This document shows positions 24 through 53,390 of a stretch of 54,186 bases of DNA, piece by piece. The notes under the pieces were generated by a model. That model had not been told where the DNA came from, ran no database searches, and saw only the letters and a list, made by a program, of their open reading frames with translations. The DNA comes from a virus. Lineage: Duplodnaviria; Caudoviricetes. Location: the IMG/VR virus record IMGVR_UViG_3300048786_000038, positions 1 through 54,186 of that record. One strand, given 5' to 3'. Numbering within the stretch: the stretch's first letter is position 1; each line of letters begins with the position of its first letter. A program made the translations under genes and the position numbers.

Positions 24-2755
24 GTACTGTTAACATCCCTTACCGCTAAGGTAGCGTATACCCGCCGCGCGGGGGTGTCAAAAAGGTCCTGGCCGACAAA
101 ATGGCCCTCGGCATAGCGGCAGTTGTCGGCAGCGATACGGAAATAGCTTTCCTTCAATTCGACCCCGATTCCCTTTCGGCCGAACCGAACCGCCTGATAG
201 ACTTCTGAGCCTATTCCCATGAACGGAGTCAACACCGTCTCCCCGGGATTGGAGTACAGCTTGATGCACCGCTCAATGGCTCCAAGTTGCAGGGGGCAGA
301 TGTGCTTTTCGTCATCGGCGTCGCGGGCCGGGGCATAGCGGAGCACGTCCGACTCCCGGATGCCGAACCAGATGCCGTGAGCCCAGTTGATCCACGTCTC
401 GTTTTCCATGTCGCCATTCTCGACGGGGCGAATCTGGACAGCGTTCTCCCCCGGCTTCTTGAATATCAATATCTGGTCGATGATGGCAGGCCGGGAGTGA
501 GAGGAATCCTTGCGGAGTTGAGCGAATAGGAGCGCCTTGCTCTTGATGCGGATCGCTTGCGCCTGAGGATTCTTCTGGATGAACGCGCGACCGACAAACA
601 CCCAGCCCTCCCGCTCATAGGCGCGTATCACTTCCCCGGGGAAATCGCGCATGCCGATGTAGCCGTCTTTCACTTCCATCGCGGGGATGTCAGAGGAATG
701 GACGCACGTCAAGCGGCCGGGCTTTGTCACGCGGAGCACTTCGCGGATGATGAAGGCATAGTGCTGGAAAAACTCCCCCCAGTCCTTCGAGTTTCCCAGA
801 TCGTGCTCGCTGTTCGTGTAGGTGTAGAGGTCCGCGAACGGTGGGGAGTACACTGAAAGGTCGATGCTGTTCTCGGACAGCTTCGGAAGCTCTTGGCACG
901 AATCCCCGTTGATCGCTCGGAAGTTTGCGCCCGTCACTTCCTCATAGAACGCCGATTCCGCCTGCTTTACTTCGTCGCCCATGTTCAATTCCCGCCTTTC
1001 GTAGATTGCGATATTGCGCAGCAGCTCGCTGGTCATCAGCTTCGCCACGCGCTCCTTGCGTTTCACGTTCTCCCATATCTCCTGCTCGGCTGCCGACATG
1101 ATGATGAACACGTTGACCGGGTGTTTCTGCCCGTAGCGCCATTCTCGGCGGATGCACTGGTAGTACGATTCCCATGAATCGTTCATGCCGAAGAAGATCA
1201 TATTGTGAGCTGATTGAAGATTTAGGCCCCATCCGCATATTTTCGGTTTACTTAGAAGAATTGAAGTCTCTCCGTCGATGAACTGTTCTATTCTTTTTTC
1301 TTTCTCTCCGATAGGCAACTCGCCATAAACGGACGAATAATCCTTGATTATTCCCTCAATCGCTTCTTGCTCAGAATTGAGGCCGCACCAAATCACCCAC
1401 CGAGATATTTTATCGCTTTCATTAGCAATTTCGGATTGTCCTTGAACGATCCCAGTCCGAAGTTGCAATTCACGCAGAGCAACCCCCGTATCTTCTTTGT
1501 GTTGTGGCAATGATCCACATAGGGCTTTTCCATTTCCTGATTGCAGATGGCGCATTTCCCCTTCTGTTGATCCAGCATAGACCGGAACTCCTGCGCTGTT
1601 ATCCCATAGAGTCGCATTCTCTGATTTTGTCTTCTCTCTGGATTTTCCTTCTGCCACTTCTTGACTTGCGCCCTCGCTTCCACCCTGCGCCATTCGTCCC
1701 GAGCGTACAATTCCCTTCTCCGTTCGTTTACCTTCGCCTGTTGCTCCGGAGTCCTCTTCCACTTTTCCAAGTGAGATTGCCTGTACGCCTTCATGTATTC
1801 CGATTTGCTCATGCCGATTATTATACGCTTTGGAATTAATAATATCAAGCACTTTGCCGAGACGGTCGGGAATCGTTGAGCGTCTGACATTTGTCCTGTC
1901 CGTGATACCGGATAGCTTCGAGTGAAAAAGCTCCCCCTCAGGCACGTAGTCAGATTCGACGACTATCGGCGTGATGGTGAGTTTCGGAAGTATGTAGCCT
2001 TCATCGGAATAACCCAGCTCGGACGGCCGCGCCATCGCCACGGCCCACGATGCCATCCACTCGTAGAACGGACCGCGTGCATGATTCTTCAACCGCCATT
2101 CCTGGCCCTGCTTGTTGCTATGCTTCTTGCGCGTGATTGAGCCGTCCTGTTCCTCTCGCTCGTCCTGCTTGTTGGCGTGGATGAAAAACATGGCAAGCAT
2201 TTCCGCGCTCTTGCAGATGCCGAGAAACTCGGCGTGATTTCCGATCTCGCTTTGATCATTAGGTGCCGGGGTAGCCGTGCAGCAGAGGCGATATTTCACC
2301 GTGGCGCACCGCTCGGTCAAGAGTTTTCGCGTCACCCCGCCGATGGATTTCAGGATGGACGATTCATCGAGAACGACCGCTCCGAATTGCGAGAAGTCAA
2401 GCGCGTCGATCATTTCATAGTTGCAGATCGAAAACGGTCCCGACACGTCGGCCATGCTTCGGATGTACTTGATCTCAATTCCGATCTTTGCTCCCTCGCG
2501 GATCGTCTGCCGTGTCACAGACAACGGGGCGATGATGAGCGTGCGCTCGCCAAGAAGGCGAGCCCATTCAAGCTGGATGAAGGTTTTTCCCAGGCCCGTA
2601 TCGAGAAAGATTGCCGCGCGCCCCTTGTGACACGCCCACCGCACTATGTCACGCTGGAAAGGGTAGAGCATGGAATTGACCTGCTCGTCGGAGATCTCGA
2701 TTCCCGCGTACTCCGCTCGTGCCTTCTTTGACTGCAAAAACTCGGTGTATGTCAC
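20..2755 (-). CDS. SNF2-like helicase fused to an N4/N6 DNA methyltransferase, with a ~150 aa insertion
   Basis: Helicase motifs DTGLGKT, LDESS, TATP, GLNLQ; MTase motifs SPPF, HICPLQL, TPFMGIGS; GTG at 2755 overlaps the upstream stop. Confidence 0.85.
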   Translation of the reverse strand: MTYTEFLQSKKARAEYAGIEISDEQVNSMLYPFQRDIVRWACHKGRAAIFLDTGLGKTFIQLEWARLLGERTLIIAPLSVTRQTIREGAKIGIEIKYIRSMADVSGPFSICNYEMIDALDFSQFGAVVLDESSILKSIGGVTRKLLTERCATVKYRLCCTATPAPNDQSEIGNHAEFLGICKSAEMLAMFFIHANKQDEREEQDGSITRKKHSNKQGQEWRLKNHARGPFYEWMASWAVAMARPSELGYSDEGYILPKLTITPIVVESDYVPEGELFHSKLSGITDRTNVRRSTIPDRLGKVLDIINSKAYNNRHEQIGIHEGVQAISLGKVEEDSGATGEGKRTEKGIVRSGRMAQGGSEGASQEVAEGKSREKTKSENATLWDNSAGVPVYAGSTEGEMRHLQSGNGKALCGSLPQHKEDTGVALRELQLRTGIVQGQSEIANESDKISRWVIWCGLNSEQEAIEGIIKDYSSVYGELPIGEKEKRIEQFIDGETSILLSKPKICGWGLNLQSAHNMIFFGMNDSWESYYQCIRREWRYGQKHPVNVFIIMSAAEQEIWENVKRKERVAKLMTSELLRNIAIYERRELNMGDEVKQAESAFYEEVTGANFRAINGDSCQELPKLSENSIDLSVYSPPFADLYTYTNSEHDLGNSKDWGEFFQHYAFIIREVLRVTKPGRLTCVHSSDIPAMEVKDGYIGMRDFPGEVIRAYEREGWVFVGRAFIQKNPQAQAIRIKSKALLFAQLRKDSSHSRPAIIDQILIFKKPGENAVQIRPVENGDMENETWINWAHGIWFGIRESDVLRYAPARDADDEKHICPLQLGAIERCIKLYSNPGETVLTPFMGIGSEVYQAVRFGRKGIGVELKESYFRIAADNCRYAEGHFVGQDLFDTPARRVYATLAVRDVNST
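1393..1812 (-). CDS. Endonuclease VII-family (His-Me) nuclease overprinted inside the helicase gene
   Basis: YGIT...QKGKCAIC...VDHCH..KKIRGLLCVNCNFGLG motif; promoter directly upstream; lower GC. Confidence 0.9.
   Translation of the reverse strand: MSKSEYMKAYRQSHLEKWKRTPEQQAKVNERRRELYARDEWRRVEARAQVKKWQKENPERRQNQRMRLYGITAQEFRSMLDQQKGKCAICNQEMEKPYVDHCHNTKKIRGLLCVNCNFGLGSFKDNPKLLMKAIKYLGG
1820..1848 (-). promoter_or_regulatory. sigma70-type promoter, leaderless, for the endonuclease VII ORF
   Basis: TTGATA-17-TATAAT-7 nt-ATG(1812). Confidence 0.8.
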
Positions 2756-53281: not shown

Positions 53282-53390
53282 ACCCGCCATGGTAACGAAA
53301 GACACACTTTATGTCAAGCGTCTTTCGGCCTTCGAGGATCGCGCGCACCATCGCAGATTGGAATAGTATTGGTCTCTCTTTCACTTTCAC
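52914..53390 (-). CDS. Original ASCH-like N-terminus continuing as an off-frame read of the HNH gene (start uncertain)
   Basis: [21 protein letters not shown] followed by atypical sequence; stop overlaps ATG 52917. Confidence 0.6.
   Translation of the reverse strand: [158 protein letters not shown]
53289..53317 (-). promoter_or_regulatory. sigma70-type promoter, leaderless, for the HNH ORF
   Basis: TTGACA-17-TACCAT-7-ATG(53281). Confidence 0.8.

Follow-up and report, generated by a model that had tools for sequence, protein, structure and literature searches.

Probable homing-type nuclease cassettes lodged without splicing elements in the genes of a peat phage

The window analysed here is the whole of IMG/VR record IMGVR_UViG_3300048786_000038 (Duplodnaviria; Caudoviricetes), a complete phage genome of 54,186 bp (CheckV completeness 100%). 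It carries four intact His-Me nuclease open reading frames (ORFs), one nonsense-interrupted module and one short remnant, distributed over locus 1 (within a helicase-methyltransferase gene), locus 2 (primase-helicase), locus 3 (near the terminase), locus 4 (the remnant) and locus 5 (an ASCH-like gene) (Table 1). We conclude, with a probability of roughly 75%, that these are homing-type His-Me nuclease cassettes living in the phage genome without a splicing element. All five loci proposed in an initial annotation, made from the sequence alone, are present, with locus 3 now refined into two modules. Under our interpretation, the cassettes would be transcribed from their promoter-like sites, translated without a leader and spread by homing, and the host genes would be served by functional read-through proteins or by translational coupling.

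The clearest case is locus 1, where an Endonuclease VII-type ORF is nested in an SNF2-type helicase fused to a DNA methyltransferase. The host ORF runs uninterrupted through an insert that its four close viral relatives (82, 79, 73 and 55% identity) all lack. Exactly 140 alignment columns are missing from these relatives, between ..INSKA and SRWVIW, and at the DNA level (blastn) the span measures 607 nt in the window versus 190 nt in the related genome G001. From the two gaps together, the insert, whose exact ends are ambiguous by a few codons, comprises the nuclease ORF from ATG 1812 and little else. The nuclease frame, one base downstream of the host frame, is open over 1393..1890(−), with ATG 1812 as its likely start, and its TGA falls in the host codons W-V-I. 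It scores 80.9 bits against PF02945 (cut-off 23.6; E 6.6e-23), the Cys and His-Asn motifs of the family are invariant in an alignment that includes it, and it is 50% identical to F-CphI over 65% of its length. The promoter-like site ahead of it is read in the host frame as L-D-I..A-Y-N.

The insert lies between the two RecA-like lobes of the helicase, just before a W-x-x-W-x-G-L motif, and in the host frame it encodes a Gly/Ser/Glu-rich coil without a Pfam match. In an AlphaFold2 (AF2) model of the host protein, residues 326–467 have predicted local distance difference test (pLDDT) values of 21–27 and no secondary structure, between better-modelled lobes. As we picture it, a 420-nt cassette that is barely more than the nuclease ORF would sit in a flexible linker between the helicase lobes. 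Its length, a multiple of three, and its avoidance of host-frame stop codons would allow the helicase-methyltransferase to be made as one protein with 140 extra, probably disordered, residues. The nuclease would be expressed from an internal sigma-70-type promoter within the host-read codons, on a transcript that starts at or next to the AUG (leaderless) and would therefore need neither an untranslated leader nor a ribosome-binding site.

Locus 5 has a more elaborate architecture. An HNH ORF, open in its frame over 52796..53305(−), is preceded by a promoter-like site that starts one base past the last host-derived codon (..EGRKT, ending at 53319). The 188-amino-acid (aa) ORF that overprints it consists of a resident ASCH-like 5′ fragment up to ..RKT, followed by 134 codons read one base ahead of the nuclease frame. 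Its first 54 residues, the only ASCH-like ones, duplicate the PILF..RKT motif of the intact gene at 52243..52917. The first PILF..RKT copy spans ~53319–53372 and the second, which is AT-richer, ~52789–52842. The TGA of the 188-aa ORF overlaps the ATG of the intact copy (ATGA), and the first 25 codons of that copy overprint the nuclease core. Conservation of that core stops at about 52844, where the second PILF..RKT copy begins; beyond it, the nuclease tail runs into the duplicated host segment and stops at a TAG in the host codons E-N-R. Matches to 47 viral relatives of this HNH end at residues 146–158.

The ASCH-like gene, found only in G001 among the relatives G001–G003, has a start without an insert there. 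On contig L011, which holds the closest relative of the nuclease (46% identity), the nuclease 3′ end overlaps the start of the homologous ASCH-like gene and there is no upstream fragment. Against PF02945 the locus-5 nuclease reaches 12.3 bits only, and we therefore file it as an HNH (phrog_2255) and not under PF02945. Among its 47 relatives, coverage by an alternative frame reaches at most 0.89 and is complete in none. Another relative, on contig L016 (2253–4399), sits between two likely major-capsid pieces (130 aa and 269 aa) that lie ~945 nt apart and leave room for an intron. We read the mobile unit of locus 5 as a promoter, a nuclease and a copy of the gene 5′ end; on its arrival in a resident copy, the 5′ fragment of that copy would have stayed in place. 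The fragment would be translatable through the cassette, stop on the ATGA and, by a hand-over of ribosomes at that overlap, could pass them to the intact copy.

Such insertions could in principle be removed by protein splicing or by a self-splicing RNA, perhaps a new or degenerate intron, that we failed to recognise, and the open host frame would then be incidental. Relatives of the locus-5 nuclease do sit in split genes with room for an intron, the capsid pieces on L016 among them, and unorthodox phage introns exist, for example the BAKA intron cited in PMC11855218. We nevertheless hold this explanation to be highly improbable. At locus 1, 417 of the 420 inserted nt are nuclease ORF, leaving no room for a ribozyme core, and no Rfam family matched on either strand even at E values up to 5; the insert at locus 5 likewise has neither ribozyme space nor an intron match. 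A group I intron would have neither a covariance-model core nor spare non-ORF sequence to occupy. An intein is opposed by the out-of-frame position of the nuclease, by the lack of any Hint or intein Pfam match in the helicase-methyltransferase protein and by junction residues (Y..I/S) unlike those of inteins. No joined forms appear in the assembled contigs of four RNA-library runs, which is weak evidence, and the stop-free host frames are non-random, as set out below. Locus 1 thus combines a patchy insert, an open host frame and an out-of-frame His-Me nuclease with no intron or intein signature, and the splicing-free lodging proposed in the initial annotation is upheld for loci 1 and 5.

The pattern recurs in other phages, in rhizobial genomes and in IMG/VR contigs, so that the refuting condition set in the initial annotation, absence of the pattern from every other genome, does not apply. 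A single-sequence peptide-pattern scan gave no close viral relatives of the locus-1 nuclease; they were later found by an alignment-based search. With tblastn, the nuclease matched 968 GenBank phage records, the two best being the Gordonia phages Malisha (OP434458; L058) and Squiddly (MN096370; L059). In both, a 176-aa Endonuclease VII ORF, preceded by TGcTAAACT-6-ATG, lies out of frame in the homologous helicase, again at this position and immediately ahead of EPWLLW. The host genes (Malisha gene 71, Squiddly gene 64) are annotated as ‘DNA helicase’ only, and the nested ORF is unannotated. The helicase module occurs in 308 phage records; among the 60 listed, the long span is found only in Malisha and Squiddly (2807 nt versus ~2140–2290 nt in the other listed records). 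Helicase homologs in bacterial genomes carry the nested nuclease, at the site used in the window, in 2 of 80 cases (L063, Rhizobium sp.; L108, Mesorhizobium sp.), and the insert is missing from 78. Among the best 80 IMG/VR relatives of the nuclease, eight are nested in this helicase (L195–L201 and L263). Malisha, L063 and L108 carry an insert at this site, and L003 and L061 do not. This patchy distribution is the one observation that would speak for active homing.

Endonuclease VII relatives are also nested out of frame in other genes. On L269, one occupies 2300–2902 within a large terminase ORF (1341–3881), in the linker between the ATPase (residues 102–276) and nuclease (521–751) domains; AGGAG lies 7 nt before its GTG start, with a TATAAT further upstream. 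On L248, another occupies 2264–2836 within an ORF (987–4040) for a 1018-aa protein with DUF6582 at residues 617–683, and has TATGAT 6 nt ahead of its ATG. Three of 13 contigs flagged as nested (L247, L257 and L268) were dropped because their open spans were trivial, 75–176 aa over short matches.

The host frames through loci 1 and 5 are stop-free beyond chance, given the nuclease sequences. We held each nuclease protein fixed, permuted its synonymous codons or resampled them from genome codon usage, and counted the host-frame stops. Locus 1 has none, against 3.8–5.2 expected (P 0.0025–0.004), and 0 of its 51 codons that precede a codon starting with AA, AG or GA end in T. Over 121 nuclease codons, locus 5 has none against 4.7–7.1 expected (0 of 20,000 permutations; P 0.006 with genome codon usage), where the frame concerned is that of the 188-aa fragment ORF only and not of one fused host protein. 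The related contigs L197/L198 have a stop-free host frame in the same offset as locus 1 (P 0.001 or less), and over the DNA that they share with the window the nuclease is 45% identical and the host-frame peptide 34%. As a control, same-offset stops do occur in the other nuclease genes of the window (3 and 12). No occupied helicase allele breaks the host frame, be it in the window, Malisha/Squiddly, L063, L108, L195–L201 or L263.

Promoter-like sites provide a second line of evidence. A whole-window scan for TTGnnn-16..18-TAnnnT-5..8-ATG, with 30 Markov-1 shuffles as background, found eight promoter-like sites with leaderless-type starts versus 0.63 expected (shuffle maximum 2). Three of the eight are the nuclease starts at ATG 1812, 53281 and 15005, at which a separate promoter tool scan agrees; the shared cassette of promoter, leaderless start and nuclease described at the outset for three loci is therefore present at all three. 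The remaining five lie at non-nuclease positions, two of them at the first ATG of ORFs 13556..13795(−) and 19205..19618(−), and leaderless-type starts thus belong to the phage in general, its nuclease cassettes included. According to the tool, a match to the promoter consensus is not evidence of function. The design is conserved in the nearest relatives: L197/L198 repeat that of locus 1 (TTGTTA-17-TATAAT-7-ATG) and L011 that of locus 5 (TTGACA-17-TACAAT-6-ATG). It is also kept in L196 and L201, and the −10 element alone is kept in Malisha, L263 and L248. The leaderless promoter does not extend to every nuclease locus, locus 2 having Shine-Dalgarno sites instead, and its design is found at other phage genes as well. 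Elsewhere in the window, at 13700–14200, two divergent leaderless-type promoters (TTGACA-17-TATTGT-6-ATG 13795(−) and TTGCAA-17-TACACT-6-ATG 14189(+)) form an intergenic pair beside a small helix-turn-helix (HTH)-like ORF, resembling a lysogeny switch.

Several observations weigh against our interpretation. Under a fixed rule (TAnnnT 5–8 nt before the first in-frame start), the element is present at four of nine distinct nested loci, at 8 of 56 non-nested loci and at 5.2% of all ATG/GTG triplets, and L063, L108 and L199 have no such promoter. Off-frame stops are mildly depleted in the other 46 long ORFs of the genome (328 observed versus 398 expected), and 79 of 784 windows of 130 codons in other genes of this GC-rich genome are open in the same offset. 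Openness alone is therefore common, and its significance rests on conditioning on the lysine-, glutamate- and arginine-rich nuclease sequences. Most of the other nested relatives, Malisha, L063 and L108 among them, have their host frame in an offset that is poor in stops anyway (P 0.05–0.87). Nor can the nested helicase alleles be counted as independent events, since they are related to one another. The AF2 model of the host protein is poor overall (mean pLDDT 43), and the RNA-library data are assembled contigs, which may hold DNA and lose rare forms.

Some of these points would suit inert relics, that is, nested ORFs from which nothing is expressed and whose open frames and promoter-like sites arose by chance in a GC-rich genome. 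One-tenth of the 130-codon windows are open anyway, consensus matches do not prove promoter function, and decay is seen in this genome, in the TAG-bearing module of locus 3 and in the remnant. Even so, we judge this improbable, because the catalytic motifs are all intact and the domain scores strong, and because the nuclease frame is conserved above the host frame over the same DNA. At two loci and in L197 the conditional P value does not exceed 0.003, the promoter geometry is shared by cassettes whose nucleases are only 45–46% identical, and the excess of leaderless-type sites over the shuffled background is hard to reconcile with chance.

Locus 2 has the anatomy of a gene in pieces, with contiguous homologs, a nuclease between the pieces and a start for each piece. 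Full-length primase-helicase homologs (P0001–P0004; 879–914 aa) match the window at 8185..7889, where their residues ~332–481 align (tblastn), and at 7551..6205; P0003 is contiguous at residue R481 across the split. The inserted DNA amounts to ~340 nt, a length not divisible by three. The upstream stop and the HNH start share the overlap ATGA, and the HNH stop and the downstream TTG start share TTGA; GGAG lies ahead of both starts, and the locus has these Shine-Dalgarno sites instead of a leaderless promoter, of which none was found. Host-derived codons (RIAFLGACG) precede the downstream TTG start and overlap the nuclease 3′ end, and RNA-library contigs bridge both junctions. The gene would survive as two translationally coupled pieces. 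In phage Aeh1, mobE reportedly splits nrdA in this way, as genes in pieces made by a free-standing homing endonuclease. Locus 2 is alike in that a nuclease lies between the halves of a gene that is contiguous in homologs, with frames and starts kept, and differs in its primase-helicase host, its unusually tight ATGA/TTGA joints and the last 10 nuclease codons, which come from host-derived sequence. The upstream piece matches the homologs only over its last ~100 residues, and no counterpart of their first ~330 residues was found in the window. A peptide-pattern scan gave no close viral relatives of the C-terminal piece; a protein database later supplied the homologs. No primase homolog is present in G001–G003.

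At locus 3, ATG 15005 is followed by 11 codons, a TAG at 15038–15040 and 299 open codons to 15937. The HNH_3-like module has E values of 0.0021 (Pfam HNH_3) and 0.0032 (zf-His_Me_endon), both below cut-off. All 51 viral relatives of the ORF match only from query residue ~81 on, and among 11 that were inspected several (L141, L152 and L154) begin at a Cys-x2-Cys motif, as does GTG 15329. Locus 3 therefore consists of two modules in frame, the second a complete HNH. Nesting was seen in 0 of the 51 zinc-finger HNH relatives. The TAG is unchanged in an RNA-library contig; amber reassignment was considered and rejected, as TAG is an ordinary stop that ends 10 of 48 long ORFs in the genome and tRNA genes are absent from the phage. 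At 14979/14980, 11–12 nt past the stop of ORF 14171..14968, the RNA-library contigs of two runs break off (one with an adaptor), and the contig of a third run continues; we use neither these ends nor stretches without contig coverage as evidence. Within the 3′ end of the zinc-finger HNH, at 15909–15938(+), a strong promoter-like TTGACA-18-AATAAT (11/12) faces the small terminase region.

Apart from itself, the locus-3 nuclease matches nothing in the window better than the remnant at locus 4 (12 of 22 residues identical, 54.5%; E 0.002), which lies directly downstream of an integrase stop. The TAG-bearing module and this 22-codon remnant may be decaying copies, and the ‘different stages’ of the initial annotation would then be a reasonable ordering of intact, nonsense-bearing and remnant copies, which we offer as an interpretation. 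The neighbouring tyrosine integrase (48672–49672(−)) is itself divided into two ORFs in different frames with an ATGA overlap, 49070..49672 carrying the SAM-like N-domain and 48672..49073 the catalytic domain; it could reflect a frameshift, a split gene or a pseudogene.

Table 1 Features of the nuclease loci in the window
Locus	Feature	Coordinates	Strand	Support
1	Host gene, SNF2-type helicase + N6/N4 DNA methyltransferase fusion, 928 aa	20..2806	−	Pfam N6_N4_Mtase 4.3e-16, Helicase_C 1.9e-8
1	Insert, 420 nt = 140 host-frame codons	1406..1825	−	Alignment gap of 140 columns versus insert-free relatives
1	Endonuclease VII-type (F-CphI-like) nuclease ORF, 139 aa	1393..1812	−	PF02945 6.6e-23, phrog_2633 3e-32
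1	Promoter-like TTGATA-17-TATAAT, 7 nt before ATG 1812	1820..1848	−	11/12 matches
2	Downstream primase-helicase piece, 440 aa	6202..7524	−	P0001 56% identity, 100% coverage; phrog_35358 DNA primase 7.7e-35
2	HNH nuclease ORF, 121 aa from ATG 7886 (earlier ATG 7901)	7521..7886	−	phrog_1571 2.4e-11; PF13392 24.7 bits, six-frame search
2	Upstream primase-helicase piece, 210 aa, ending ..RGRGCWR-EE-stop	7883..8515	−	tblastn of P0001–P0004
3	Promoter-like TTGACG-17-TATTGT, TG before second hexamer, 6 nt before ATG 15005	14970..14998	+	Window scan and promoter tool
3	HNH_3-like module with early TAG	15005..15328	+	PF13392 E 4e-5 at 15197–15313
3	Zinc-finger HNH nuclease, 202 aa from GTG	15329..15937	+	phrog_1035 2.8e-11, phrog_28061 5.8e-10
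4	Nuclease C-terminal remnant, reads NLQPLWAKENLSKHNRF	48584..48649	−	tblastn with locus-3 nuclease, six-frame reading
5	Intact ASCH-like gene copy, 224 aa	52243..52917	−	phrog_874 4.4e-70
5	HNH nuclease ORF, 161 aa	52796..53281	−	phrog_2255 1.9e-10
5	Overprinting ORF, 188 aa	52914..53480	−	phrog_874 2.4e-8 for residues 26–55 only
5	Promoter-like TTGACA-17-TACCAT, 7 nt before ATG 53281	53289..53317	−	10/12 matches

The setting of these genes also allows that the nucleases are domesticated rather than selfish, serving packaging, competition with co-infecting phages or counter-defence, and that nesting is gene compaction. In their place just ahead of the small and large terminase genes, the locus-3 nucleases occupy a position in which packaging-associated HNH proteins are known. 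One study (PMC13096335) is said to describe a homing endonuclease that aids immune evasion, and the host-gene partners here, a methyltransferase and a helicase, are defence-related. The patchy presence of the inserts fits mobility instead (absent from four of four viral relatives, 78 of 80 genomic relatives and 58 of 60 listed phage records), one nuclease family occurs in unrelated genes (helicase, terminase and the DUF6582 protein), the locus-1 nuclease is kin to F-CphI, an annotated homing endonuclease, and decaying copies lie in the same genome. Domestication is accordingly quite improbable in our view.

The genome itself has regional GC contents of 50–64%. Between 98 and 100% of sampled words from window positions 1–8600 are present in 14 DNA sequencing runs (13 from peat, one from permafrost), so the window is not an assembly artefact. 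Megablast of positions 1–20000 against the GenBank phage collection gave no close relative, and blastn similarity to G001 is confined to the helicase-methyltransferase and ASCH-like genes. A prophage search with the terminase as query gave no match and named no bacterial host, and the helicase homologs are scattered across so many phyla that no host can be named from them.

A hidden out-of-frame nuclease insertion is a known kind of element, first described in 2025 by Arsenault, Gosselin and Gogarten (Genes, PMC11855218). Their ShiLan domain is inserted in a mycobacteriophage methylase, keeps the methylase frame free of stops and conceals an HNH that is read in another frame. In that paper, which builds on a 2023 paper (PMC9957025), a second hidden case is Pacc40 gp60, a helicase-methylase fusion; its authors found no intron or intein and proposed leaderless initiation. 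The suggestion in the initial annotation of an under-described lodging strategy holds in that the strategy is under-described; as regards novelty, PMC11855218 had already reported it in mycobacteriophage methylases, a helicase-methylase fusion among them. The ShiLan and Pacc40 cases and the window share a patchy insertion, a read-through host frame, a His-Me nuclease in another frame and no intron or intein signature. Pacc40 gp60 is moreover homologous to the host protein of locus 1 (28–41% identity in three segments). The methylase part of Pacc40 gp60 (L060, 3102–7127) also holds a ~420-residue intein-like segment (CLARGSL...VVKN/C).

The differences are several. The locus-1 nuclease belongs to the Endonuclease VII/F-CphI-like family, and none of the nucleases in the window matches Pacc40; the locus-1 insert lies in the linker before the second helicase lobe, whereas the Pacc40 insert lies inside the first. 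The ShiLan kind is found in Mycobacterium phages, and the present cases in a peat phage, Gordonia phages and rhizobial genomes. The window has an explicit −35/−10 promoter placed for a leaderless transcript, and the word ‘promoter’ occurs 0 times in the text of PMC11855218 available to us. Further features, at locus 5, are the duplicated 5′ end of the host gene and the proposed hand-over at ATGA. In that same text we did not find this nuclease family or this site, cases outside actinophages or in a terminase, explicit promoter geometry or its conservation, statistics on stop avoidance or the variant that combines duplication with coupling; the authors' own survey may already list some of the present cases.

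F-CphI of cyanophage S-PM2 is described as a free-standing homing endonuclease with an Endo VII motif (PMC6083498). It is of the same catalytic family as the locus-1 nuclease, and differs in being annotated as free-standing, whereas the locus-1 gene is nested out of frame in its proposed target gene. Homing endonucleases encoded by group I introns and inteins likewise lie patchily in conserved genes at conserved motifs. Unlike these, the nucleases of the window have no ribozyme or Hint domain and their removal is unneeded, as the host gene would tolerate the extra residues or be re-started.

On balance we lean, by a modest measure, towards a broader view, in which Endonuclease VII-type and HNH homing genes would be widespread, self-expressing minimal cassettes (promoter, leaderless AUG, nuclease and host-borrowed stop) that colonise inter-domain linkers out of frame. 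Selection would then keep the host frame stop-free or re-start the gene by coupling a stop to the start of a duplicated 5′ end. Introns, inteins and intergenic free-standing genes would thereby be joined by a fourth mode of lodging, used across bacterial phyla and in essential genes such as that of the large terminase. The phenomenon is wider than mycobacteriophage methylases, with one helicase site occupied in at least 12 distinct genomes from different host groups, plus a terminase. The 2025 paper left open how a hidden nuclease is expressed, and the promoter geometry offers a concrete, testable answer. The stop-avoidance signal and the duplication-plus-coupling variant are handles on how a host gene and a selfish gene share DNA, and the permissive sites marked by inserts could guide the choice of insertion points in protein engineering. 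As Malisha and Squiddly show, nested nucleases escape standard gene calling, and both the load of homing genes and the extent of overlapping coding in phages are therefore underestimated.

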